Origin: Alphaproteobacteria bacterium UBA828
GTDB lineage: Bacteria; Pseudomonadota; Alphaproteobacteria; UBA828
Reading direction: 5' to 3'
Assembly (NCBI GenBank): GCA_002296185.1
Contig: DBHM01000013.1
Location: 5,273-69,272, forward strand
Length of the DNA: 64,000 nucleotides
The notes beneath the pieces were generated by a model. That model saw only the letters and a list, made by a program, of their open reading frames with translations, was not told where the DNA came from and ran no database searches. This document shows positions 28,541-50,050 of this stretch, in pieces. Both the position numbers and the translations under genes were made by a program. Numbering within the stretch: the first letter of the stretch is position 1; each line of letters opens with the position of its first letter.

Positions 28541-30328
28541 TTATTTCTTTAAATTATGTTGCCGTACTTTATCCGTAGCATTTATATCAACACTACCATC
28601 GTCATTTAGAATGACGCCATATACGTCTGTTACTGTTTGCTCTGAAATCCATCTATCATTTAGGTCATCCACCACTAAATTAACATCTCTCTCATTAGGG
28701 TCACCATAACCACCACCCCCACAAGAATAAGATACAATTGTATGACCCTGTGGTATAATTGCTTGCTCACATGATTCTAAAGGATGTAAATCGCCATTGG
28801 GATCTCTTCTAAATTGGTTAGCGCAGCCACCTGGCCCACCACCCCGCACTCCTTCTGCTGGTGTTTCGTTACCATCGCTTACATAACCTACTTCCATTTC
28901 ACCATCGGTAGGACCAAACTCACAAAAAACTCCAGCCCCCCCTCTAGTTCTTCCTGCTCCACCAGAATCAGTAACAAAATGTCTTCCTTTAACCAACATC
29001 GGAAAGCGCATTTCATCAAGTTCTATACTATCAAGGTAGGATAAACCTGCATTTCCTATATGACCTAATGTCAACCAGGCATCATTATGAGGCGCTGCTG
29101 CGCCACCACCCCAACCAAGAAATATTTGATTCACATAAGGGCCTCCAGTCATCTCACTAGATCCAGAGATTACGCCAATACTGGGCGGGATTATTGCGGC
29201 AGCAGCAGCCATACCATAACCATCCCCCAACTCAGCAATAGCACGCTGCGTAGCATTACCTACTCTATCAGCGATATTAGTAGTAGCAACTGAACAACTT
29301 GTAGGATGCTTTGGTATACCTACAACACAATTCTCCCTTAATTTAATATCTACTCTACGGAAAGAACCTTGATTAGTTGGAACATCCGCAGGAACAGAAT
29401 TAAAAACGCCTAAAAGAGCAGAGGTTTCTGCACACGCTTGGCTAAGGTTCAGACCGCATGGAAGGCAATCAGGGTTATCTCGCAGGTCTACTTCGATCAT
29501 TGCGGATTCTGTATCTACTTTTACTTCGACTTTAATATCGACACCTTCTTCCATTCCAGGAAATGGGTCATGACGGGTATGAACAACCTTTGTACCACCA
29601 GGCATATTTCTAACTGCCGATATCATAAGTTGCTCACTGTAATCGAACCATTGTAAAGCGAACTGCTCAAGAGTTTCCCAGCCCACTTCAGAACCTAATG
29701 CTAGTATTTCTCTTTCACCTATTCGAGCAGCACCAAGAGCAGCTAAATAATCGCCCCACCACTGATCAGGAACTCTGATACGCATTTTACACATTCGAAT
29801 AATATCATCTATATCCTTATAATTTTCTTGGATACGAATAGCAGGAAAGATTAGAGCTCCTTCCTGATAAACATCTTTAGCTCCACCGTGATATGTTGTG
29901 GGAATTGAATTACCACAATCAGCCTGATGTGCTTTTGCAACCATTGTAAAACGATGAATTCCATCATCATCAATTACAGGTACTAGAGTAGTATGATCAG
30001 CAGCATGTGACCCACCGTGGTATGGAGAATTATGCATAAAAGCATCACCCCTCCGAAGCTCAGGGTGAAATTCTTTCATTGATGCTGCCATCATATCAGC
30101 ACCACGGAGTACATGAATTGGTAGACTTTCATTAACAGATAATAATGAGTTGTCTCCAGTAACTAAGCAGCAAGAAAAATCTCTTGCACTATTTAGCACT
30201 CCAGACCTTCCAGTCCTAAGTAGCGTATTAGACATTTTGCGGCATATAGCTTCCATTCGCTTATTCAAGACCGCCATTTGCACACCATCTAACTTACGTT
30301 CTTTTTTTGCCTTTAATTCAATAGACAT
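28541..30328 (-). CDS. Hydantoinase B/oxoprolinase family protein (HyuB-like, set 2)
   Basis: 595 aa. C-terminal CGGGGYGDPNERDV. It lies 20 nt downstream of HyuA set 2. Confidence 0.9.
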   Translation of the reverse strand: MSIELKAKKERKLDGVQMAVLNKRMEAICRKMSNTLLRTGRSGVLNSARDFSCCLVTGDNSLLSVNESLPIHVLRGADMMAASMKEFHPELRRGDAFMHNSPYHGGSHAADHTTLVPVIDDDGIHRFTMVAKAHQADCGNSIPTTYHGGAKDVYQEGALIFPAIRIQENYKDIDDIIRMCKMRIRVPDQWWGDYLAALGAARIGEREILALGSEVGWETLEQFALQWFDYSEQLMISAVRNMPGGTKVVHTRHDPFPGMEEGVDIKVEVKVDTESAMIEVDLRDNPDCLPCGLNLSQACAETSALLGVFNSVPADVPTNQGSFRRVDIKLRENCVVGIPKHPTSCSVATTNIADRVGNATQRAIAELGDGYGMAAAAAIIPPSIGVISGSSEMTGGPYVNQIFLGWGGGAAAPHNDAWLTLGHIGNAGLSYLDSIELDEMRFPMLVKGRHFVTDSGGAGRTRGGAGVFCEFGPTDGEMEVGYVSDGNETPAEGVRGGGPGGCANQFRRDPNGDLHPLESCEQAIIPQGHTIVSYSCGGGGYGDPNERDVNLVVDDLNDRWISEQTVTDVYGVILNDDGSVDINATDKVRQHNLKK

Positions 30329-30348
30329 TTTGCGTTCCTATAAAATTT

Positions 30349-32418
30349 CTAAGGAGCCGGTTCTATGACCAGGCTGCCACTCTTCATTTTCGAAGCTTTT
30401 GCTTCCGGATCAATGACCACAGTTGTAAAAGAGGATTCTATTATCGCTGGGCCTGTAATAAAAAGTTCACTATCCATTGATTCAAATTTATGGACCGGAG
30501 TATCGATAAAACCAACACCATCAAAATAAGCTTGTCTAAATTCCTGATTAGACTCAACTTCACAATCTTCAACTAGCTGAAATGCATGCTTATCCCTTAG
30601 TCTACAACTAATATTTGCTCTCCATCCGACAAATTCTATATCCGATTGCTTATCAGAAATAGCAAATAAATCTTCATGAGTAGAATGAAAATCAGAATGT
30701 AATTTAGCTAGGTCATCTTCATTAGATATCAAACCGCCTCTTAAAGGTACCTCGATTTCCCAAATTTGACTTGGATAACGAGCTTCTGCGGTAAATTCAA
30801 TAGTATGATCAATACATCCTTCACCGGGTCCACTTAAGAATAACTTACATTGACTTAAAAGATTATCAAGGAGGCCATTAACACCTTTAAAATCAAAGTT
30901 TGAGGTATCTGTAAATAAAGTTGCGCTATACTCTCCTCTTAGATCAGACATTAAGGCACCAGCTGCAGAAAGTGTTGCAGACGTATCTGGAATAATTACT
31001 TGCTTACATCCTAATCTTTGCCCTATCGCGACCATATTTAAACCCGCCGCTCCTCCTCCACCAATTAATACAGCATCTCTAGGATCTATTCCTTGATTAA
31101 CTGTAATATCCTCAATAGCATGAACCATATTCTCGGTAGCGACTTTTAGAACTGCATAAGCAGCTTCTTTTGTTTCTAGTCCAAGTTTATCAGCAATACC
31201 TGAATTAATTGCTTTCAATGCGGCTTTATGATCAAGGTGCATTGCACCACCTAGAAAGTAATTAGGGTCAATCCATCCTAAAACGACTGAGGCATCTGTT
31301 ACAGTCGCCTCTGTACCGCCCTTTCCATAGCAAACAGGTCCCGGAACAGCTCCAGCACTTTGAGGGCCTACATGAAGCAACCCTCCTTCATCAACCCATG
31401 CTATACTTCCACCTCCAGCACCTATACTTTTAACATCAACTGCGGGAAATCCTGTCATATGGCCACGATAAGGTTGACCAATCCAAGTTTCTCTAGTCCA
31501 TGGAATTCTGCCGCCTCTAACTAGACTAACATCGAATGTAGTGCCCCCTGTATCTGCAATAATTGCAGTATCTACCCCCGTATCATGGCTAGAATAATAA
31601 CGACCTGCTACAGGAGCCATAGCTGGCCCTGAATTAATAGAATGAATGGGAGATTTAGCCATATCAGCTGCATCCATTGCACCACCCTGAGTCGTTACAA
31701 CCAAAACACGGCCATCGAAACCAGCATCTTTTAAACGCTCTTTAAGCCCACCAAGATAACTACCCATAAGGGGTTTTAGTGAAGAATCGATAACAGTTGA
31801 TGATGCTCGCCTATATTCTCTTAGAGAAGGATTAATTTTATGGGAAAGGGTATAAGGAATACCAGGTAAATGCTCTTCAATCAGTTTCCCAATTTTATTT
31901 TCGTGAATCGGATTAACAATTGACCATAATAAACATACACCAATTGCTTCTACTTTTTCTTGCCTTATACTTTCTAATGTTTCTATTAAATGATTCTCAT
32001 CGAGAGGCTCAATTATTCGACCGTCATAAGCAACACGCTCTTGAATTTCATAAGTTAAGGATCGCGGAACATATGGCTTAGGAAAATCAGCAGTAAAATC
32101 AAAAGGCTCAGCTCTCCCGCCCTCTCTAAAAACTAATACATCCGGATGTCCCATTGTTGTCAAAAAAGCTGTCTTTGCAGTGTTATTGGTTACAATAGCG
32201 TTAATAGCACGCGTAGTGCCGTGAATAAGCATATCTCCCTTTAATAAAAAATCTCTATCAGACAAACCAAAATCGTTTGCAGCTAAATGAAGTGTATCGA
32301 GAACACCTTTTATAGGGTCATCAGGTGTTGTAGAGGATTTATAAAGACGAACATCACCATTAACATCTTCTACAACTAGATCTGTAAAAGTACCACCTGT
32401 ATCAACTGCAAATCTCAT
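30349..32418 (-). CDS. Hydantoinase A/oxoprolinase family protein (HyuA-like, set 2)
   Basis: 689 aa. MRFAVDTGGTFTDLVV, ADTGGTTFDVS and GAGGGSIAWV. Confidence 0.9.
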   Translation of the reverse strand: MRFAVDTGGTFTDLVVEDVNGDVRLYKSSTTPDDPIKGVLDTLHLAANDFGLSDRDFLLKGDMLIHGTTRAINAIVTNNTAKTAFLTTMGHPDVLVFREGGRAEPFDFTADFPKPYVPRSLTYEIQERVAYDGRIIEPLDENHLIETLESIRQEKVEAIGVCLLWSIVNPIHENKIGKLIEEHLPGIPYTLSHKINPSLREYRRASSTVIDSSLKPLMGSYLGGLKERLKDAGFDGRVLVVTTQGGAMDAADMAKSPIHSINSGPAMAPVAGRYYSSHDTGVDTAIIADTGGTTFDVSLVRGGRIPWTRETWIGQPYRGHMTGFPAVDVKSIGAGGGSIAWVDEGGLLHVGPQSAGAVPGPVCYGKGGTEATVTDASVVLGWIDPNYFLGGAMHLDHKAALKAINSGIADKLGLETKEAAYAVLKVATENMVHAIEDITVNQGIDPRDAVLIGGGGAAGLNMVAIGQRLGCKQVIIPDTSATLSAAGALMSDLRGEYSATLFTDTSNFDFKGVNGLLDNLLSQCKLFLSGPGEGCIDHTIEFTAEARYPSQIWEIEVPLRGGLISNEDDLAKLHSDFHSTHEDLFAISDKQSDIEFVGWRANISCRLRDKHAFQLVEDCEVESNQEFRQAYFDGVGFIDTPVHKFESMDSELFITGPAIIESSFTTVVIDPEAKASKMKSGSLVIEPAP

Positions 32419-32473: not shown

Positions 32474-32839
32474 TCAATCAATTATTTCAGTATCTGCTCC
32501 TCTAAAAAAACAACTACGGTAATTTAGATGGCACGCATCTCCTTTTTGATCCACCAAAAGTAGTAAAGTATCTCCATCACAGTCAATTCTAATATCTTTT
32601 AATTTTTGAACATTACCCGAAGTCTCCCCTTTCCTCCAAAGATTTTTTCTTGAGCGAGACCAATAACAAGCGTAACCTTCCTTAAATGTTGTATGAATAG
32701 ACTCTTCGTTCATCCAAGCCATCATTAAAACTTCTTTAGTATCATATTGCTGAACAATAGCTGGAACGAGTCCTGAAGAATTAAACGCAACATTAGAGAC
32801 AAATGTATCAGAAATTTCCTGGGAAAATTTTTTCTCCAT
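32474..32839 (-). CDS. hisI: Phosphoribosyl-AMP cyclohydrolase
   Basis: 121 aa. LVPAIVQQYDTKEVLMMAWMNEES...YWSRSRKNLWRKGETSGNVQKL..IRIDCDGDTLLLLVDQKG.ACH is the canonical monofunctional HisI sequence. Confidence 0.85.
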   Translation of the reverse strand: MEKKFSQEISDTFVSNVAFNSSGLVPAIVQQYDTKEVLMMAWMNEESIHTTFKEGYACYWSRSRKNLWRKGETSGNVQKLKDIRIDCDGDTLLLLVDQKGDACHLNYRSCFFRGADTEIID

Positions 32840-37195: not shown

Positions 37196-37876
37196 TTATT
37201 TAAGTACTCTTAACACTTCATCTGAAGACATGACATCTCCAAATTGCTGTATGAATGTTTCCAAGGTTACTAAATGCTCTTCGTCAGAAAGAGCCGCAAG
37301 GCAATCTGATACCATAACAGTTTTAAAATCTAGCATCATAGCATCTCTTCCAGTTGCATCACAGCAAACATTAGTTTTAGTACCTGCAATCAAGAGAGTA
37401 TCTAGATTATTACTTCTAAGGTAACGTTCTAGGTTGGAAGATCCTGAGATTAAAGCGCTATATCTATTTTTAGTTAGCTTAATATCAGAAGATAAAATAT
37501 CCAGCTCATGCCAAAAGTCTTGGCCCTCTTCACCCGCTCGTAATCCCTTAATAGTTTTATCCTTCATATCATCTGAAACAAAGTAATCAAAAAAATTCGA
37601 CCAATCTGTTGAGTCACCGAAATCTTGATTTGCGTGAGCTATCCAAATAATTGTACCACCCTTAGAACGAATATTTTCTGCGAGTTTATTTATATTTGAA
37701 ACTATATTACGACCCATAGGAACTTCAACAGCTCCCCCTGGTTTCAGAAAAGTATTCTGCATATCAATGACTACAAGAGCGAGATGTTGAGGGGATAAGT
37801 GGTCGAACAAATGAAACTTACCACGCCTGGAAACAACTCGATCGATAATATTTTTTCTGATAGCAACCTGATGCAT
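37196..37876 (-). CDS. Isochorismatase-family cysteine hydrolase (paralogue 3)
   Basis: 226 aa. LALVVIDMQNTF and LLIAGTKTNVCCDATGRDA motifs. Last gene of the HyuAB set 3 operon (7-nt gap). Confidence 0.75.
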   Translation of the reverse strand: MHQVAIRKNIIDRVVSRRGKFHLFDHLSPQHLALVVIDMQNTFLKPGGAVEVPMGRNIVSNINKLAENIRSKGGTIIWIAHANQDFGDSTDWSNFFDYFVSDDMKDKTIKGLRAGEEGQDFWHELDILSSDIKLTKNRYSALISGSSNLERYLRSNNLDTLLIAGTKTNVCCDATGRDAMMLDFKTVMVSDCLAALSDEEHLVTLETFIQQFGDVMSSDEVLRVLK

Positions 37877-37883
37877 AACTACC

Positions 37884-38156
37884 TCATTTTATAATTTTAT
37901 CATATAAAAATGGATCATCATGAATGGCTGTTTCGGTATCAAGTAATGCATAACAACCTGGACAAAAAAATCGGCGTAATAGTAGCCCCTGGGAAACAGT
38001 ATAATTATCTCCACATAGATCTTGCATAGATTCTTCAGAGATAATAACTGACTTCTTCCAATGAAGATCTTGATCACATATTTTATATTCACAGCAACTA
38101 CATACTATAGAGCCCCTGCCATTAAAGCTGAGAGTTTCTGAAAGCCTTGACTTCAT
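37884..38156 (-). CDS. Small Cys-rich protein resembling the C-terminal part of acetone carboxylase gamma subunit
   Basis: 90 aa. IVCSCCEYKICDQDLHWKK and LLRRFFCPGCYALLDTE recall, from memory, the CxC...C...NWK and REYFCPxCGT...VE blocks of AcxC-type subunits. The start overlaps the hyuB stop (TAATG). Confidence 0.55.
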   Translation of the reverse strand: MKSRLSETLSFNGRGSIVCSCCEYKICDQDLHWKKSVIISEESMQDLCGDNYTVSQGLLLRRFFCPGCYALLDTETAIHDDPFLYDKIIK

Positions 38157-39979
38157 TATGAGCCGCCCCCTCTAACTCTATTATTTAATATATTTTTTCT
38201 TAATATTACACTTTGTTCTAAGTCGACCTGACCATTTATAATTATTGCACCATAAATTTCTTTAGCCGCATTTTCACTGACAAGTCCTTCATTAACATCT
38301 TTTTCTAAAGACTTAAGGTCTCTTTTTAATGGGTCACCGTAACCGCCACCCCCGTTCCAACGAACATGCAAGTAGTCATTGCCAAATAATGGGAAGACTC
38401 CCCAAGATATATTTTCTTTATCTCCCTCATAAGAATTAGATCCAACTAATAAATCATCTGACAAACACCTATCACTATTCTTTTTTTGATTTTTTATCCA
38501 GGTATACCTTGATGGAGCGCCAGGGTAACCTCCAGCTAAACCCTCACTCATTGGATAACTAGTCCCTTTCCCGGAAACTACGTAATTTATACCACCATCT
38601 GGTGCATCATGAGGTGTAATGGCAAATTCTGCACCAGCACCACCTCTATAAGTTCCTGGACCACCAGAATCCTTGAGACGCCTTCGAAATAAATATCTAA
38701 CCGGAAAAGTCCACTCCATTGTTTCCACATTAGCCATTCTAGAAATAGGATTAGGAATTTCTCCCCCCACATCTACACCATCTCCAATAGAGCGAGCCCC
38801 GGCTGCACCTCCAAATGTTTCTGTTAATATACCTATGGAATCAGAACTTCTTTGGTTTTTACCGAACATAAAAATTGCAAAATGACTTCCATGCCAAACG
38901 GCTGTTGCTTCATTTTTATATTTGTCGCTTGCTGAAAGCATTTTTGAAATACATGTACAAGCAGCATTGTTAACCGCCTGAATTGCACCAACAGTAGCAA
39001 TAGAAACTGGAGCCGGGCGAGTAGCATTAACAACTGTACCCTCTGGTGCTTTCATCTCTATAGGTTTAATTACACCTTCATTCCAAGTAATATCGTAGCA
39101 GAGTAAAGGAAATAATGGCGCAAAGAGTCCACCCCAAGAAGCCCATTTTGAACAATTAATTCCATACTTTGATTGTGGGCTAGAGCCACTAAAATCAAAA
39201 GACAGTGTATCTTTTGATTTAGTCATTTTTAAAATGACCTTATACGTTTCATCTTTAACATTAAAATATTGACGAGATTCCCAACTACCATCAGGTAGTT
39301 CTAGTAAACGTTCACGTAGAAGATCTTCAGACTGATCAATTAAATTACTACATGCCTCATCAACTATGGATATACCATATTTTTTTACAAGACCTTGCAT
39401 CCTGTCACGTGCAACATTATTACAGGCGATCATCGATGATATATCTAGAGCAACCATTTCAGGAGAACGAACCATATTTAAGAGTGTATCCATAACATCT
39501 TTTCGTATCTCTCCTCTATCAACAATTTTAAGTCCAGGTGAGGAAAAACCTTCAGTAAAGATGTCTAGCGATTCTGGACTAAAACCCCCTGGGTTCATGG
39601 CTCCAATATCATAAACGTGTACAAAACATGCACTCCATGCGACCAACTTACCTTCGGAATGAATAGGAGCTACTAAATAGACGTCGGAAGTATGCAAAGC
39701 AGCAGTGTAAGGACAGTTTAATAAAAAAACATCATTCTCATTAATATCTGAATTAAATTTATTGATTATAGACTTACATGCCTCAGCTGCACTAGTTAGG
39801 TGATGAAGAAACCCCACACCTCCCATTAATAAAGAACCATCTGCTCTATACAATGAAACCATAAGATCATGGCCTTCATTTGTTATTGCGCTTCCAGATA
39901 CATGTTTGAGTGTTATTACTGCTTCATCAACTATCCGAAACAACCTATGGCGTATGATTGAGAAAGTAATAGGGTCCAT
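38156..39979 (-). CDS. Hydantoinase B/oxoprolinase family protein (HyuB-like, set 3)
   Basis: 607 aa. MDPITFSIIRHRL N-terminus and NGGGGYGDPLKRDL near the C-terminus. Confidence 0.9.
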   Translation of the reverse strand: MDPITFSIIRHRLFRIVDEAVITLKHVSGSAITNEGHDLMVSLYRADGSLLMGGVGFLHHLTSAAEACKSIINKFNSDINENDVFLLNCPYTAALHTSDVYLVAPIHSEGKLVAWSACFVHVYDIGAMNPGGFSPESLDIFTEGFSSPGLKIVDRGEIRKDVMDTLLNMVRSPEMVALDISSMIACNNVARDRMQGLVKKYGISIVDEACSNLIDQSEDLLRERLLELPDGSWESRQYFNVKDETYKVILKMTKSKDTLSFDFSGSSPQSKYGINCSKWASWGGLFAPLFPLLCYDITWNEGVIKPIEMKAPEGTVVNATRPAPVSIATVGAIQAVNNAACTCISKMLSASDKYKNEATAVWHGSHFAIFMFGKNQRSSDSIGILTETFGGAAGARSIGDGVDVGGEIPNPISRMANVETMEWTFPVRYLFRRRLKDSGGPGTYRGGAGAEFAITPHDAPDGGINYVVSGKGTSYPMSEGLAGGYPGAPSRYTWIKNQKKNSDRCLSDDLLVGSNSYEGDKENISWGVFPLFGNDYLHVRWNGGGGYGDPLKRDLKSLEKDVNEGLVSENAAKEIYGAIIINGQVDLEQSVILRKNILNNRVRGGGS

Positions 39980-39986
39980 TGTTACC

Positions 39987-42107
39987 TCAAATTGATTTAA
40001 TTAAAATATTTCGCAAATCGTCCATTTTACCAACCTGATCTAGTTGGATAACAATCGTTGTTATTGGAGTATGTATAACAGCAGGACCCGTTATCTCATT
40101 CCCTGAACTTAATTTATCAAAATCATAAATGGGCGCTTCTACCATACCATCTTTTGCATCAACAAATATATTTCTTGTACCTATTTGAGCGCCCTTACTA
40201 TCAATTCCACTATATTGAGATTTTTCAACGTTAGGCCTCTCAACCAAACCTCTAGCTGTAAGACGAAACATAGTCATTTCTATACCCGCTTCCTTATAAG
40301 CAGACCCCTTTCCATATCTACGCTCATACAAGGTCTCGAAATCTGATATTAATTGACTCATATTTTCATCATCTAGAGGGACGCTCACCTTTATAGGAGT
40401 TGTTACTTCATGGACTTGTCTTCCGTACCTAAAATCTATTGCCCATTCGAGGGATATTTTTTTATCAGTGAAACCCTCAGATAATAACTGAGAATGACCC
40501 TTGAGAACCATCGGTTTGAAAATATTATTAATATGTTCTGCAGAGCACGGGAGTGAACATGTTTCTGTATGTGTATATTCATGCACTATATCTGCTGAAG
40601 CTAATCCAAAAGCACAATTTACGGATGCAGCATAAGGTACAACTATGTTTTTAACATTTAATTCAGCGCCAAACATAGAACATAACAATGGACAGCTGCC
40701 TCCAAATGCGTGCAAAACAAAGTCCCTCGGGTCCAAGCCCTGCTCAACAGTAATTTCATGTATTAAATCAGTGACCTGTGCTGCAGCTATTCTATATATT
40801 CCAAAAGCTGCAGTTTCAATATCCAAGCCGAGAGGTTGTGCAATTTTCTTATTAAAGACTCTCCGAGTATTTTCTACATCAAGTTTAATGGAGCCACCTA
40901 AAAATCTATCTGGATCTATATAACCAATCAATAGCATTACATCCGTGAGTGTTGGTTCATCACCTCCCTGTCCGTAGCATACCGGGCCAGGGACAGCTCC
41001 TGCACTAATAGGACCAATACGAGGGATATTTGTTCGAGGGTCAAGCGAAATTATACTTCCTCCACCTGATCCAATTGATACAACCTCTATCTTTGGCGCA
41101 ACATAGTGAAAACGGTCAACCATAGGCTCTCTAGAGTGACTAAGCTCTCCATCCTGAATAACCCCGACTTTAAAAGTAGTGCCACCCATATCTGCTGCAA
41201 TAATATTTTCTTCACCCATCAAACTTCCAAGATAACGGCTACCTATAACTCCTGCCGCTGGACCGCATTCAAGCATACCTACAGCACGATCTGCTGCTTC
41301 ACGAGCAGATAATAATCCACCGTAACCTTGCATAACTAAAATTTCACCATTATAGCCTTCTGCCTCTAATTGAGACTCAAGACTTGTAAGATAGTTTTTT
41401 GTTATACTACCAGCATAAGCATTGATAACTGTTGTTGAAGTTCGTTCATATTCTCCTGGAACGGGGGCAATTTCGTTTGACAATGAGACATAAACTCCAG
41501 GAGATACTTTGTTTATTATCTCTTTTATTTTTTTTTCGTGTTGTGGATTAAAAAATGACCAAAGGAGACTGACAGCAATAGCATCAACTTTTCCCACTTC
41601 TATTAGACTTCGTATAGAAATCTCAGCGGCAGCTTCATCAAGTTGAAGGAGAATCTCTCCTTTATAATCAACCCTTTCACTTACACCCTCTATTCTATCA
41701 GTCGGGACTAAAGGTTCTGGCCTATCAGTTGCTACAGGATGTTTTATTTTATCTTCAGTCAAACCACCCCAACGGCCATATGCACCTCTTGTCATTAGAA
41801 GTGTATCCTCAAAACCTTTAGTAGTAATTAGACCCGTACGATCACCTGTGCGTGTAAGAAGGGCGTTATCAACAACTGTTGAACCATGAACAAAGAGACG
41901 ACATGATGAAAATAGTTCGGCTAAACTAAGACCTATTTCCTCAGCTGCAGAATATACAGAATTAATTATACCATCTGCAAAATTTGGAGGAGTGGATAGT
42001 GCCTTCCCGAGTTTCAACCCTTCCCCAGCAGCAAAAATAACTGTATCAGTACACGTGCCCCCAACATCTGTAGCAATGATGTACTTTCCGCCCTTAAGCC
42101 TTTCCAA
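39987..42107 (-). CDS. Hydantoinase A/oxoprolinase family protein (HyuA-like, set 3)
   Basis: 706 aa. TTG start 8 nt behind a GGGAG RBS. IIATDVGGTCTDTVIF, ADMGGTTFKVG and GSGGGSII. Confidence 0.9.
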   Translation of the reverse strand: MERLKGGKYIIATDVGGTCTDTVIFAAGEGLKLGKALSTPPNFADGIINSVYSAAEEIGLSLAELFSSCRLFVHGSTVVDNALLTRTGDRTGLITTKGFEDTLLMTRGAYGRWGGLTEDKIKHPVATDRPEPLVPTDRIEGVSERVDYKGEILLQLDEAAAEISIRSLIEVGKVDAIAVSLLWSFFNPQHEKKIKEIINKVSPGVYVSLSNEIAPVPGEYERTSTTVINAYAGSITKNYLTSLESQLEAEGYNGEILVMQGYGGLLSAREAADRAVGMLECGPAAGVIGSRYLGSLMGEENIIAADMGGTTFKVGVIQDGELSHSREPMVDRFHYVAPKIEVVSIGSGGGSIISLDPRTNIPRIGPISAGAVPGPVCYGQGGDEPTLTDVMLLIGYIDPDRFLGGSIKLDVENTRRVFNKKIAQPLGLDIETAAFGIYRIAAAQVTDLIHEITVEQGLDPRDFVLHAFGGSCPLLCSMFGAELNVKNIVVPYAASVNCAFGLASADIVHEYTHTETCSLPCSAEHINNIFKPMVLKGHSQLLSEGFTDKKISLEWAIDFRYGRQVHEVTTPIKVSVPLDDENMSQLISDFETLYERRYGKGSAYKEAGIEMTMFRLTARGLVERPNVEKSQYSGIDSKGAQIGTRNIFVDAKDGMVEAPIYDFDKLSSGNEITGPAVIHTPITTIVIQLDQVGKMDDLRNILIKSI

Positions 42108-46293: not shown

Positions 46294-48330
46294 TTATGAT
46301 ATATGGAGATATCCAAGAGAGTCTACATTCAGTATTTGTTTGGGGTGAATAATTGTTGTTGCCGATTTCTCCTCTACCAGCAAAGGCCCTTCCATGGTAA
46401 AACCTGGATTTAAACACTCCCTATCAAGCACATGGCATTCATGTACACCATCCTCACCAAAAGAAACCTTTCTTTTTCCCTTAAAAGATTGGCTTTCATC
46501 AAATCCACCCTTTATTGAGTTTGATGAAGGGCGTGGAACAGGAGCAGTTGCAATTAAATGATAATTTACAATTTCTATAAGAGTAGATTTTAGACTGAAA
46601 GTGAAAGCTCTCTCATGCGCAATATGAAAATTCTTTTTAATAGAATCTAAAGAATCTCTGCTGTAATCAACTGAAATACCAACCCAGTGTTCTTGTCCTT
46701 GATATCTAAGATCAATAGATGTTTCAAATTTAACATCACCAATATTTATATCTTTATCATCTGAAAAATAATCTTTTGCTGAGTCTTCAAGATCAGAAAA
46801 AATTTCCTTGATTTCATTAACGCTTATATTATCTATTTGGCGTAAGCGAGTAAGAACAAAATCTTTTCTTGGTTCCGTTGCAAGCATGCCCCATGCTGAG
46901 AAATAGCCAGGATACCTTGGAACAATTATTTCTTTAACCCCAAGTTCCCTACCAAGTGTTGCTGCATGCATTGCTCCACCACCACCACCAACTACTAAAA
47001 CAAAATCTCGTGGGTCATGACCTCTCTGTATAGAGACTAGTTTTAGGGCATTAATCATATCCGCATCTGCAAGTCTAATGATTGATTCTGCCGCCGATAG
47101 AATATCGACACCTAAACCTTTTGCAATTTTATTCATCGCTTGTTCAGCTTTATTCAGGTCTAACTTTATACGACCTCCAGCAAAATAGTTTGGATCAAGG
47201 ACACCCGCAATCAACTTAGCATCCGTTACAGTAGGTTCTATACCTCCCATCCCATAGCATGCAGGGCCTGGATCAGCTCCTGCGCTTAAAGGTCCCACCT
47301 TAAGTGAACCAACCTTATCGAACCATGCAATAGAACCTCCACCTGTTCCTATTTCAACAATATCTACAACAGGTATTTTTACTGGATAACCTGGATTCAG
47401 TCGTGACCATTCAAGCTTGTAATCTGTTGTTACGGTTACCTTGCCCCCTTGAATAACTGAACATTTGGCAGTTGTGCCGCCAATATCTAAATATATTACA
47501 TTGCTTTCTTCGCACAGTTTTCCGACAAGAGCTGCGCCGTTTACCCCTGCTGATGGACCAGATTCCACAAGAGTGATTGGATGAGAACGAGCCCACTCAA
47601 AACTCGTTGAACCACCATTAGATTGCATGGCATGCATCGGACAATTAAAGCCTTTGCTATTCAAGGAAGTTTCTAAAGCATTAAAATAGTCTTGCACAAT
47701 TGGCTGAACATACGCATTAAGTACAGCTGTATTAGCTCTTTCATATTCCCTCCACTCCCTTGTGATTTCATGGCTTGCAGTGACAGCAACATCTGGTAAA
47801 TGCTCAATAATATATTTAGAGCATTGCTCTTCATGATATGGAGAAGAATAACTATGAAGGAATACTATTGCTATTGCTTCAATTTTTTCTTGTTTACATT
47901 GAGATATAACCAAATCTAGGTCAGACATACAGAGAGGCTCTATAATTTTTCCGTTTGAATCTATCCGTTCACTTACCTCAAATCTTAATTTACGAGGAAC
48001 AAAAGGTGTTGGCTTTCTAAAACGAAGATTATAGAGGTCCGGCCTATTTCCTCTAGCAATTTCCAGTATATCTCGAAAGCCCTTAGTTGTGACAAGTGCT
48101 GTCTTTACACCCTTCCTTTCAGTAATTGCATTAATAACTGTTGTACCGCCATGAACAAAGAATGTGATAGACTGAGGGGTAATTCCAGCAAGATTGATTG
48201 CATCTTTAACACCATCAGTTAAATCTTTTGGTGTAGTAAGTGATTTTTCAGTAATTAGCTCTCCTGAAATTTCATCAAAAGCCACTACGTCTGTAAAAGT
48301 ACCACCAATATCAGCTGCCATGCGGCCCAT
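46294..48330 (-). CDS. Hydantoinase A/oxoprolinase family protein (HyuA-like, set 4)
   Basis: 678 aa. MAADIGGTFTDVVAF, LDIGGTTAKCS and GTGGGSIAWF. It lies 1 nt downstream of HyuB set 4. Confidence 0.9.
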   Translation of the reverse strand: MGRMAADIGGTFTDVVAFDEISGELITEKSLTTPKDLTDGVKDAINLAGITPQSITFFVHGGTTVINAITERKGVKTALVTTKGFRDILEIARGNRPDLYNLRFRKPTPFVPRKLRFEVSERIDSNGKIIEPLCMSDLDLVISQCKQEKIEAIAIVFLHSYSSPYHEEQCSKYIIEHLPDVAVTASHEITREWREYERANTAVLNAYVQPIVQDYFNALETSLNSKGFNCPMHAMQSNGGSTSFEWARSHPITLVESGPSAGVNGAALVGKLCEESNVIYLDIGGTTAKCSVIQGGKVTVTTDYKLEWSRLNPGYPVKIPVVDIVEIGTGGGSIAWFDKVGSLKVGPLSAGADPGPACYGMGGIEPTVTDAKLIAGVLDPNYFAGGRIKLDLNKAEQAMNKIAKGLGVDILSAAESIIRLADADMINALKLVSIQRGHDPRDFVLVVGGGGGAMHAATLGRELGVKEIIVPRYPGYFSAWGMLATEPRKDFVLTRLRQIDNISVNEIKEIFSDLEDSAKDYFSDDKDINIGDVKFETSIDLRYQGQEHWVGISVDYSRDSLDSIKKNFHIAHERAFTFSLKSTLIEIVNYHLIATAPVPRPSSNSIKGGFDESQSFKGKRKVSFGEDGVHECHVLDRECLNPGFTMEGPLLVEEKSATTIIHPKQILNVDSLGYLHIS

Positions 48331-48331
48331 A

Positions 48332-50050
48332 TTATTGACCCTCTCGTAAACGTGTAGTTTCTATATCGTCCACTTTTCCATTTTCATCTATTACAACTCC
48401 AAAATCTGATTTAGCAACCTCATTTGAGATATATCCATTAAGGAAATCTTCATGGACTAGACTTATAGGTCTTTCTAGAGGTGAACCAAAACCACCGCCA
48501 CCACCAGTAACAACTCTTAATTTATCACCTTTACTTAATTCTTGATGAGAGATTCTTGAAACTCTTTTTAGTATTCCACTCCTTATAATCTCCATATAAT
48601 TATTAGTACCCTCTTTTCCCCCCTTGAGTCCCCAAGGTTTTTCTATACTACGTCCAAAGCTACAATATGTATGAGCATCGTTTATTAATATTTCAAATTC
48701 ACGTATCGCCCCAAAGCCACCACGCCAATACCCGGCACCCACACCATCATTAACGTTAAGAGAATATTCAGTTATTCTTAAAGGAAATTTTGCCTCAAAA
48801 AGCTCAACAGAATAATTATATGTATCCCCATCAGTTGTAGCAATAAGAGCACCCGTGCCATCACTGTCTGATTGGGCGCCCCAACCTCCGACTGCTGGTT
48901 CAATGTGGACAAACATTTCATCTGTATCGGGGTCTTTCCCAAAAATATACGCTGCACAAAGGCTCATATAACTACCTGCGCTTAATTGATCTGGAGCAAG
49001 TTCTGCAAGAGCTCTCCATACCAACTCTGATGCTTGTGCAGAGCCTTCATAATACCATCCTGTTGGAGCAGGTTTTTTTGCAGTAAAAATTGTACCTTCT
49101 GGGCAAATTATAGTTATTGGCCTAAACCATCCTTCATTTGAGGGACCTTGAGGGTCCACAAGAGCTTTAAAAACTGTCTTGACTGCTGCGCTTAATGCCC
49201 CAAATGCACAATTTATTGGACCATTACGTTGAGGGCTTGAGCCAGTAAAATCGAAGGCTATCTCATCACCTTTAATCCTAACCTCAACACAAACAGGAAA
49301 CTGATCATTAGACACACCGTCCCCATCAATAAAATCTTTGGCACTATAAATTCCATCAGGAAGATCACGTATTGCTTGACGTGACAATTTATCACTTGAT
49401 TCAAGTATATAATTGAATGTCTTTCGGACCGTTTCCTTACCATACTTAGTAAATATCTCAGTAACACGAGTCTCAGCAATACGTACAGCTGCTAGTTCTG
49501 CATTAAAATCACCTATACACATAGTAGGTAAACGAGTATTTTCTCTAATTAATTCTATTATATCTGGTTGAACTTCGTCATTCCTGCAAACACGGATACC
49601 CGGAAAACGAATACCTTCTTGATATATTTCTGTGGCACTCGGAGAAATACTACCAGCTACAGCACCACCTACTTCACTCCAGTGAGCAACTGCAATTGCA
49701 AAGCTTTCTAGTTTACTATCAATAAAAATTGGTTTTATAAGTGCAATATCACAAGTATGAGTGCCCCCATCAAACGGATCATTGGTCATAAATACATCTC
49801 CAGGGCTTATATCATCCCCAAACCGACGTATTATACTCTGCACCTGTAAAGCAAAAGTGCCTGTAAAAAGTGTAATTCCATTTGTCTGGACAATTAATTG
49901 TCCTTTTGGATCACATACTCCACATGCAAAATCTAAAACTTCATAGATAACGGGACTCATAGAGCAACGAGAAATTACGATACCCATTTCATCAGCAGTT
50001 GCTAAAAGCTTACCTCTAATAATTTCCTGTGTTATTGAGTCTGCAATCAA
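48332..50050 (-). CDS. Hydantoinase B/oxoprolinase family protein (HyuB-like, set 4)
   Basis: 572 aa. TTG start. ITQEIIRGKL N-terminus. The C-terminal motif is the variant TGGGGGFGSPLERP. Confidence 0.9.
   Translation of the reverse strand: MIADSITQEIIRGKLLATADEMGIVISRCSMSPVIYEVLDFACGVCDPKGQLIVQTNGITLFTGTFALQVQSIIRRFGDDISPGDVFMTNDPFDGGTHTCDIALIKPIFIDSKLESFAIAVAHWSEVGGAVAGSISPSATEIYQEGIRFPGIRVCRNDEVQPDIIELIRENTRLPTMCIGDFNAELAAVRIAETRVTEIFTKYGKETVRKTFNYILESSDKLSRQAIRDLPDGIYSAKDFIDGDGVSNDQFPVCVEVRIKGDEIAFDFTGSSPQRNGPINCAFGALSAAVKTVFKALVDPQGPSNEGWFRPITIICPEGTIFTAKKPAPTGWYYEGSAQASELVWRALAELAPDQLSAGSYMSLCAAYIFGKDPDTDEMFVHIEPAVGGWGAQSDSDGTGALIATTDGDTYNYSVELFEAKFPLRITEYSLNVNDGVGAGYWRGGFGAIREFEILINDAHTYCSFGRSIEKPWGLKGGKEGTNNYMEIIRSGILKRVSRISHQELSKGDKLRVVTGGGGGFGSPLERPISLVHEDFLNGYISNEVAKSDFGVVIDENGKVDDIETTRLREGQ

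Follow-up and report, generated by a model that had tools for sequence, protein, structure and literature searches.

The 90-amino-acid open reading frame (ORF) that lies directly after hyuB on the minus strand of the 64-kb window (the window being the whole stretch of DNA that was analyzed) very likely encodes the native short-form gamma subunit of a HyuA-HyuB-gamma enzyme, and it is predicted to carry a structural zinc ion and to sit on HyuB. With lower confidence, we posit that this enzyme opens the ring of an N-heterocycle. The initial annotation of the ORF, made from the DNA letters, had described a truncated acetone carboxylase gamma subunit coupled to hyuB; the membership in the gamma-subunit family (PF08882) and the coupling stand, but the truncation does not, since about 90 residues is the native length. 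On the sequence evidence, gamma is a widely conserved small protein that is predicted to be a partner subunit and to bind zinc. The features discussed below are collected in Table 1.

Table 1. Coordinates in the window of the gamma gene, its neighbors, and its predicted functional motifs
Feature	Coordinates	Strand	Basis
Isochorismatase-fold cysteine hydrolase	37196..37876	-	Pfam E=4.5e-37; D38/K136/C171 triad motif
Gamma gene (PF08882 short form, 90 aa; predicted beta-tent/Yippee-like Zn-binding fold)	37884..38156	-	ORF, Pfam, profile, AF2, Foldseek, synteny
Second predicted zinc knuckle, C65-P-G-C68	37953..37964	-	Ortholog conservation; alignment with AcxC/ApcB
W33-K34 motif, outside the predicted zinc site	38055..38060	-	In 79/79 orthologs
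First predicted zinc knuckle, C19-S-C-C22 (conserved ligands C19, C22)	38091..38102	-	Ortholog conservation; alignment with AcxC/ApcB
Translational-coupling junction hyuB/gamma	38156..38172	-	TAA and ATG share 38156; GAGGGGG 38166-38172 within hyuB 3' end
hyuB (607 aa, Hydantoinase_B; predicted gamma partner)	38156..39979	-	Pfam E=6.4e-119
hyuA (706 aa, Hydantoinase_A plus N- and C-terminal domains; ATP-binding subunit)	39987..42107	-	Pfam, profile scores

A small gene of the gamma-subunit family

The junction between hyuB and gamma on the minus strand (...TCA TAATG AAG...; in full, TCATAATGAAG) has the overlap that had been noticed at the outset: the hyuB TAA ends with the A that begins the gamma ATG, and the two genes share exactly this 1 base. 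The GAGGGGG run, which is Shine-Dalgarno-like, lies 9 nt 5' of the gamma ATG. The ORF contains seven Cys residues, at positions 19, 21, 22, 27, 48, 65, and 68, which give the pattern C-x-C-C-x4-C ... C-P-G-C reported by the initial annotation. A 67-aa ORF nested in an alternative frame (37889-38092) had been set aside as not credible, rightly so by our searches, in which no conserved counterpart was found and the best tblastn match had an E value of 0.28. Rfam and tRNA scans of the window returned no matches.

Against the Pfam Acetone_carb_G model (PF08882), the comparison that the initial annotation had proposed as a check, the ORF gave a positive result (E=9.1e-7, 29.5 bits), with residues 18-86 matching profile positions 26-100 of 113 and a score above the curated gathering score of 21 bits. 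A single-sequence phmmer search against the PDB was marginal (E=0.14-1.4; AcxC at 0.14 and ApcB at 1.4). A profile built from an alignment of 57 relatives of the 90-aa protein (A1) matched AcxC at 3.7e-13 and ApcB at 2.7e-12, and everything else, namely Yippee, Mis18, and assorted zinc fingers, fell at E>0.05. We consider the homology to AcxC and ApcB settled because the profile search succeeded where the pairwise phmmer search was marginal. A word-indexed homolog search with the 90-aa protein returned a single near-identical ENA protein, and the family was recovered by exhaustive HMMER search (107 cluster representatives).

The AlphaFold2 (AF2) model built on A1 is confident (pLDDT 94.1, pTM 0.84), and Foldseek places it closest to ApcB (5l9w_C; E=9e-6, TM 0.82), followed by the AcxC chains 5m45_C, 5svb, and 5svc (TM 0.76-0.78). 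The top five matches are ApcB and AcxC chains only (TM 0.76-0.82, rmsd 2.4-2.9 A), and the next match has E>=0.5. By profile score, then, the ORF is a bona fide member of the acetone/acetophenone carboxylase gamma-subunit family, and its modeled fold matches that of the crystallized gamma subunits.

A conserved four-gene module

How general is this arrangement? Scanning one genome per species with HyuB gave 80 loci at 67-79% identity, and a gamma homolog lies directly after hyuB in 78 of them (78/79 testable); the exceptions are one locus that ends at a contig edge (L072) and one lone hyuB paralog without hyuA (L076). The metagenome set comprises 80 further loci from marine, freshwater, and soil samples; its scan was seeded with an 11-sequence subset, the 57-sequence A1 alignment being too divergent, and it reached the same orthogroup only. 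There, hyuB is immediately 5' of gamma in 69 of the 71 testable loci. The hyuA-hyuB-gamma arrangement is widespread, occurring in Proteobacteria and Actinomycetota and in marine, soil, and freshwater samples. The initial annotation had expected a minimal gamma in a hydrolase-like context to be unusual; in sequence space it is common, and the expectation retains its force only against the published rule that Hyd-type clusters are gamma-less (PMC5214803).

The isochorismatase-fold hydrolase starts 7 nt past the gamma stop. A homolog of it is present in 71 of the 80 genome loci and within 1.2 kb on the 3' side in 34 of 39 testable metagenome loci. It is the fourth gene of a conserved module, hyuA-hyuB-gamma-cysteine hydrolase. 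The nearest characterized relatives of the hydrolase are RutB, biuret hydrolase, and N-carbamoylsarcosine amidase, which act on ureido and carbamoyl groups. Other neighboring genes in the window encode RidA, an SDR, an ADP-forming acyl-CoA synthetase, an enoyl-CoA hydratase, and an enolase-superfamily protein. Of the 80 loci, only 3-4 share the CoA ligase and the enoyl-CoA hydratase that lie close to the window copy. The neighbors that recur across loci are HTH_3-cupin regulators, often between gamma and the hydrolase, Bmp/PnrA-type ABC transporters, TRAP transporters, aminotransferases, xanthine-dehydrogenase-type Mo enzymes (Mo-hydroxylases), and deaminases. No acetoacetate-utilization function occurs among the 25 most frequent neighbor families, CoA-transferase, thiolase, and beta-keto-acid genes show no conservation among the neighbors of the module, and neither a second HyuA-like (alpha') gene nor an epsilon gene adjoins it.

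The window also provides an internal control. It holds three HyuA/HyuB pairs (28541-32418, 38156-42107, and 46294-50050, the last in B-A order), and gamma accompanies the middle one only: searched against all six-frame ORFs of the window, the A1 profile finds the 90-aa ORF alone (E=1.8e-31; runner-up E=0.35). The gamma-linked HyuB shares only 19% and 28% identity with its two counterparts in the window.

A ring-opening hydrolase or a carboxylase?

What kind of enzyme would carry this subunit? HyuB scores 181 bits against ApcD, 180 against CapB, and 178 against N-methylhydantoinase; its score against the AcxB-type alpha subunit (5m45_A) is 126, and HyuA follows a similar pattern, with its lowest score against the Acx subunit. 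By these scores, the HyuA/HyuB core is not acetone-carboxylase-like, and the large subunits are not AcxA/AcxB orthologs; the AcxC partner subunit has 776 aa, in contrast to 607 aa for the distantly related HyuB. The closest NCBIfam profiles to HyuA and HyuB are those of CapA and CapB (511 and 232 bits; cut-off 1000; CapAB structure, 6YRA), whereas ApcC and ApcD give 408 and 180 bits (cut-off 1500), and none of these cut-offs is reached. HyuB aligns with ApcD over its full length (2-602 versus 30-644), and its predicted metal ligands D38, H96, D99, and H121 align with D65, H123, D126, and H148 of ApcD (PMC5214803), the same D-H-D-H set that is conserved in the two-subunit lactamases and hydantoinases.

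Apc consists of five subunits, including alpha' and epsilon, both of which are absent here, and the apcB gene is flanked by apcA (alpha') and apcC (alpha), whereas gamma here follows a HyuB-type gene. Judged by gene set and equivalog scores, the module is not a five-subunit ApcABCDE. CapAB, N-methylhydantoinase, and HyuAB of Pseudomonas sp. NS671 have been described as alpha-beta only and gamma-less (PMC5214803, PMC8453981). The module falls outside the published gamma-less definition of the Hyd type as well (PMC5214803), in that it has a conserved hyuB-coupled gamma gene.

We favor, by analogy and with lower confidence, an ATP-dependent enzyme that would open a hydantoin- or lactam-like N-heterocycle, the product of which would then be decarbamoylated or deamidated. 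We prefer this reading because the relatives of the conserved cysteine hydrolase cleave ureido and carbamoyl groups, because the recurrent neighbor families point in the same direction, and because hyuB adjoining cshA, the gene for N-carbamoylsarcosine amidase, is documented for creatinine/N-methylhydantoin catabolism (PMC8864220). The module resembles hydantoin catabolic pathways in having a carbamoyl/amide hydrolase gene in its context. An outright assignment to the N-methylhydantoinase plus N-carbamoylsarcosine amidase pathway was considered and rejected as analogy only: the hydrolase is distant from the Arthrobacter N-carbamoylsarcosine amidase (47 bits), and HyuA and HyuB are not close to the N-methylhydantoinase in the PDB.

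Could the same gamma subunit instead mark a carboxylase? Under this alternative, the holoenzyme would be an ATP-dependent Apc- or Acx-like carboxylase of a ketone or another enolizable compound. Gamma has been documented in acetone and acetophenone carboxylases only, Hyd clusters being described as gamma-less, and the order hyuA-hyuB-gamma is that of acxA-acxB-acxC (PMC5214803); gamma matches ApcB best in structure, and the full-length alignment of HyuB with ApcD points the same way. The reading also stays alive because the gamma-linked pair leans, in relative terms, further toward Apc than do the gamma-less pairs of the window: the ApcD/CapB bit scores are 180/232 for the former and 89/244 and 136/290 for the latter, and the ApcC/CapA scores are 408/511 versus 316/566 and 269/492. 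Against it, the Apc and Cap equivalog scores are far under their cut-offs (180 and 408 versus 1500 for Apc), HyuB reaches only 126 bits with the acetone carboxylase alpha subunit, and the alpha' and epsilon genes of Apc are missing. Moreover, the conserved neighbor is a cysteine hydrolase of the amide-/carbamoyl-cleaving kind, the transporters are of the nucleoside/N-heterocycle type, CoA-transferase, thiolase, and beta-keto-acid genes are not conserved, and the CoA ligase and enoyl-CoA hydratase genes are confined to 3-4 of the 80 loci. On balance, we regard a carboxylase as unlikely, although it is an alternative to be taken seriously.

Predicted zinc site and role of gamma

Two segments of the ORF had been likened to the conserved zinc-ligand blocks of AcxC, and the alignment with both AcxC and ApcB bears this out. 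C19 and C22 align with C74 and C76 of AcxC and with C22 and C25 of ApcB; C65 and C68 align with AcxC C124 and C127 and with ApcB C75 and C78. These are the Zn(Cys)4 ligands of AcxC (C74, C76, C124, and C127; PMC5543143) and the ligands of ApcB (C22, C25, C75, and C78; PMC5214803). In the crystallized gamma subunits, the metal bound at these positions is zinc or mercury. C19 is kept in 77 of 79 orthologs and C22, C65, and C68 in 78 each, and all four are invariant throughout the 57-sequence alignment; a fused ortholog (L026) has lost three of the four. The other three of the seven Cys residues originally highlighted did not prove to be conserved beside hyuB: C21 occurs in 1/79 sequences, C27 in 5/79, and C48 in 3/79. 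The predicted zinc ligands are thus C19, C22, C65, and C68 (CxxC...CPxC, as in ApcB), and C21, C27, and C48 are lineage noise. Conservation extends beyond the Cys residues to W33 and K34 (79/79), R61, E75, and D86 (78/79 each), L84 (77/79), and F63 (75/79); the counterparts of W33-K34 are NWK in AcxC and SYK in ApcB. W33-K34, R61, E75, and D86 probably mark the predicted HyuB interface.

In the mechanism that we propose, gamma would bind one structural Zn2+ via C19, C22, C65, and C68 and would dock on the HyuB-type subunit in the manner seen for Apc-gamma and Acx-gamma in crystals, thereby stabilizing the complex while taking no part in the chemistry. HyuA-HyuB-gamma would phosphorylate and open a cyclic amide or ureide, hydantoin- or lactam-like, a step that gene context suggests with lower confidence, and the adjacent cysteine hydrolase would then remove the exposed carbamoyl or amide group, following the same logic as N-methylhydantoinase and N-carbamoylsarcosine amidase. 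In both crystallized enzymes, the gamma chain is bound to the HyuB-type subunit, well away from the ATP and metal sites, and the zinc is considered structural by the authors of both structure papers (PMC5214803, PMC5543143). The HyuB protein ends about 16 residues past the shared GGxGYGDP region, versus about 52 in ApcD, and is missing most of the long C-terminal arm that wraps around gamma in Apc; the details of docking may therefore differ from those in Apc.

It is also conceivable that gamma does more than stabilize. It would then be a beta-tent domain with a ligand-sensing or regulatory function, binding a substrate or effector (cyclic imides and uridine are bound in this way by the cereblon CULT domain) and gating the enzyme. 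The weak structural neighbors that come after ApcB and AcxC (Yippee, Mis18, and cereblon CULT) share the beta-tent fold, a Yippee-like homology was already noted in PMC5543143, the likely substrates are cyclic amides or ureides, and W33, K34, R61, E75, and D86 all lie outside the zinc site. Those beta-tent matches, however, are nonsignificant (Foldseek E>=0.5, TM about 0.3; HMM E>=0.05), the same conserved residues might just as well belong to the HyuB interface, and no ligand is reported in the crystal papers, in which gamma lies well away from the active sites (PMC5214803, PMC5543143). We consider a sensing role improbable and retain a structural zinc subunit as the preferred role.

A native short form

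Is the small size of gamma a sign of decay? AcxC (Xanthobacter autotrophicus, 5SVB/5M45 chain C, 168 aa) is a member of the same Pfam family, has the W-K motif, and is encoded directly after a HyuB-type gene in the order A-B-gamma. Relative to gamma, AcxC is extended by about 55 residues at the N terminus and by a C-terminal helix of about 20 residues, which touches the other large subunit, and its first knuckle is CxC rather than the CxxC found here. The initial annotation had put the missing N-terminal part at about 80 residues; in the alignments, in which residue 16 corresponds to AcxC 71 and residue 86 to AcxC 145, about 55 N-terminal and about 19-22 C-terminal residues are absent. At 90 aa, with a CxxC knuckle and neither the N-terminal extension nor the C-terminal helix, gamma is not AcxC proper. 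ApcB (Aromatoleum aromaticum, 5L9W chain C, 129 aa) is like gamma in its CxxC...CPGC ligand spacing, in lacking the AcxC-type N-terminal extension, and, as predicted for gamma, in having a HyuB-type partner subunit. Its profile match spans nearly the whole gamma protein, with an identity of only about 20%, and it is about 30-40 aa longer, chiefly at the C terminus.

Across the 78 genome loci and most of the 107 cluster representatives, gamma is about 90 aa long, and this length has been kept while identity falls to only 30-52% across distant lineages in the 78 genome and 80 metagenome loci. The predicted gamma starts that were checked are identical to RefSeq protein records in 6 of 6 cases. 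Gamma is a separate gene in 64 of the 78 loci and is fused in frame to the HyuB C terminus in 14; the protein library likewise contains HyuB-gamma fusions (P0031, 686 aa, and P0076). Among the separate genes, the junction with hyuB is a 4-nt ATGA overlap in 49, the 1-nt overlap seen in the window in 6, and a gap of <=2 nt in 5. These start/stop overlaps and the 14 C-terminal fusions fit a HyuB partner that would be stoichiometric and assembled cotranslationally. An HMM match and conservation of the ORF and its Cys ligands in syntenic loci were both found, where the initial annotation had named the lack of both as the outcome that would speak against its claim.

Because length, ligand Cys, and the invariant residues are conserved, we read the gamma of about 90 aa as the native short form of its clade and not as a decayed acxC. 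A degraded, nonfunctional acxC fragment that has lost its N terminus would account for an ORF 78 aa shorter than AcxC and for a pairwise similarity as weak as E=0.14. It does not account for a length, a start, and four ligand Cys kept in 78 genome and 80 metagenome loci, for the near-invariance of W33, K34, R61, E75, and D86, for independent in-frame fusions to HyuB, or for a complete and confidently predicted fold, and ApcB, too, lacks the AcxC N-terminal extension (PMC5214803); such a pseudogene is thus highly improbable and effectively refuted by conservation. A chance ORF with a fortuitous zinc-ribbon-like Cys pattern, which small size and the commonness of CxxC...CxxC, a pattern that draws weak matches to many zinc fingers, might bring to mind, is already refuted by a Pfam score above the curated threshold, a profile match unique in the window, synteny kept in >150 loci, and exact RefSeq protein records for orthologs.

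Database names and what they imply

The gamma family is known, and its orthologs already have names; as far as can be judged from sequence, the zinc subunit also occurs outside the two characterized carboxylase types. RefSeq calls the orthologs in Microbaculum, Salinihabitans, Mesorhizobium, and Variovorax "acetone carboxylase subunit gamma" and those in Pandoraea and Vineibacter "hypothetical protein." Two of the records, WP_093120352.1 (Salinihabitans flavidus) and WP_436641882.1 (Microbaculum sp.), represent proteins of 90-96 aa in the same hyuA-hyuB-gamma-hydrolase order. The RefSeq-named orthologs are about 31-38% identical to the window protein by tblastn, and the names are automatic. 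Among plasmids, tblastn with gamma returned two distant haloarchaeal matches only; a Haloterrigena plasmid encodes a 99-aa protein that PGAP names "acetone carboxylase subunit gamma" beside hydantoinase A/B, in a different, CoA-centered context. No characterization of the gamma-bearing clade was found in the literature on PF08882, on hydantoinase plus isochorismatase clusters, or on gamma after 2018.

A 90-aa PF08882 match beside HyuA/HyuB makes pipelines print "acetone carboxylase subunit gamma." To infer acetone carboxylation from such matches would be wrong because the large subunits are not Acx-like and because the conserved neighbor is a cysteine hydrolase of the carbamoyl/amide-cleaving kind. 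Marine bacterial acetone carboxylation is currently under survey (bioRxiv 10.64898/2026.08.16.745133). The present observations also qualify the rule published in 2017 that Hyd-type clusters have no gamma (PMC5214803), and the repeated HyuB C-terminal fusions support a structural role of gamma on HyuB.

The module hyuA-hyuB-gamma-cysteine hydrolase, frequent among bacteria of marine, freshwater, and soil habitats, would make a sensible, if unsurprising, target for enzyme discovery. We speculate, leaning slightly against it ourselves, that a large and widespread clade of ring-opening, ATP-dependent enzymes of the Hyd type in fact has an alpha-beta-gamma composition, including a predicted structural zinc subunit. 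It is a further stretch that the beta-tent fold of gamma might serve as a site for binding a cyclic amide or for gating. If the alpha-beta-gamma reading of Hyd-type enzymes were true, gamma would not be a hallmark of carboxylation, contrary to the 2017 classification, and automatic "acetone carboxylase" calls based on gamma, for example, in surveys of marine MAGs, would be systematically misleading.

Variation around the gamma gene

Among the 80 orthologous loci that we collected with HyuB (one genome per species; L-numbers), many carry a regulator gene with HTH_3 and Cupin_2 domains between the gene for gamma, the small PF08882 protein, and that for the cysteine hydrolase. Beside L017 and L057, where this regulator was located, about 40 further loci have a gap of ~600 bp between gamma and hydrolase. 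The window has no such gene at gamma, and there the hydrolase start lies 7 nt past gamma. We propose that the regulator is likely the substrate sensor of the pathway.

Coordinates of features in the window and in orthologous loci
Feature	Sequence	Positions	Strand	Remark
HyuA/HyuB pair 1	window	28541-32418	minus	
Phosphoribosyl-AMP cyclohydrolase gene (HisI-like)	window	32474-32839	minus	PF01502, 121 aa
HyuA/HyuB pair 2	window	38156-42107	minus	gamma-linked
HyuA/HyuB pair 3	window	46294-50050	minus	order reversed (hyuB-hyuA)
Gamma with diverging reading frame	L004	7878-8099		
HTH_3 + Cupin_2 regulator gene	L017	8104-8673		
Gamma domain of in-frame HyuB-gamma fusion	L026	7831-8028		
HTH_3 + Cupin_2 regulator gene	L057	7901-8695		
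Long palindrome of repeated AATTGGGGTC-like units	L076	7824-8000		directly after lone hyuB paralogue

Two gamma sequences are aberrant. In L026, only one of the four zinc-ligand cysteines is left in the gamma domain fused to HyuB; despite this loss, the domain matches the family profile at E=3e-17, which suggests that zinc may become unnecessary after covalent attachment to HyuB. In L004, the frame departs past the second knuckle (...GRPGCGVPCRRTAAPAG...), in what looks like a frameshift, from either an assembly error or a pseudogene; the module is otherwise intact, but the hydrolase match is absent too. At L076, a hyuB paralogue stands alone, with neither hyuA nor gamma, and the palindrome that follows it may be a REP- or MITE-like element that cut the operon short.

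Two weak matches from the exhaustive HMMER search with gamma were rejected as gamma subunits: P0054 (668 aa) has roughly ten tandem zinc-ribbon-like repeats of about 60 aa each, and P0028 (231 aa) repeats a Cys-rich stretch of ~60 aa in near-perfect tandem. In both cases the CxxC pattern probably led to a false positive.

HyuA/HyuB pairs of the window

The HisI-like gene, flanked by a HyuA gene on one side and an enoyl-CoA hydratase gene on the other, is isolated: no other histidine biosynthesis genes were seen near it in the stretches examined. Within 22 kb, the window holds three divergent HyuA/HyuB pairs, and only the middle one has a gamma subunit; its HyuB shares 19% and 28% identity with the other two. 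ATP-dependent amide or ring-opening chemistry looks to be a speciality of this genome.
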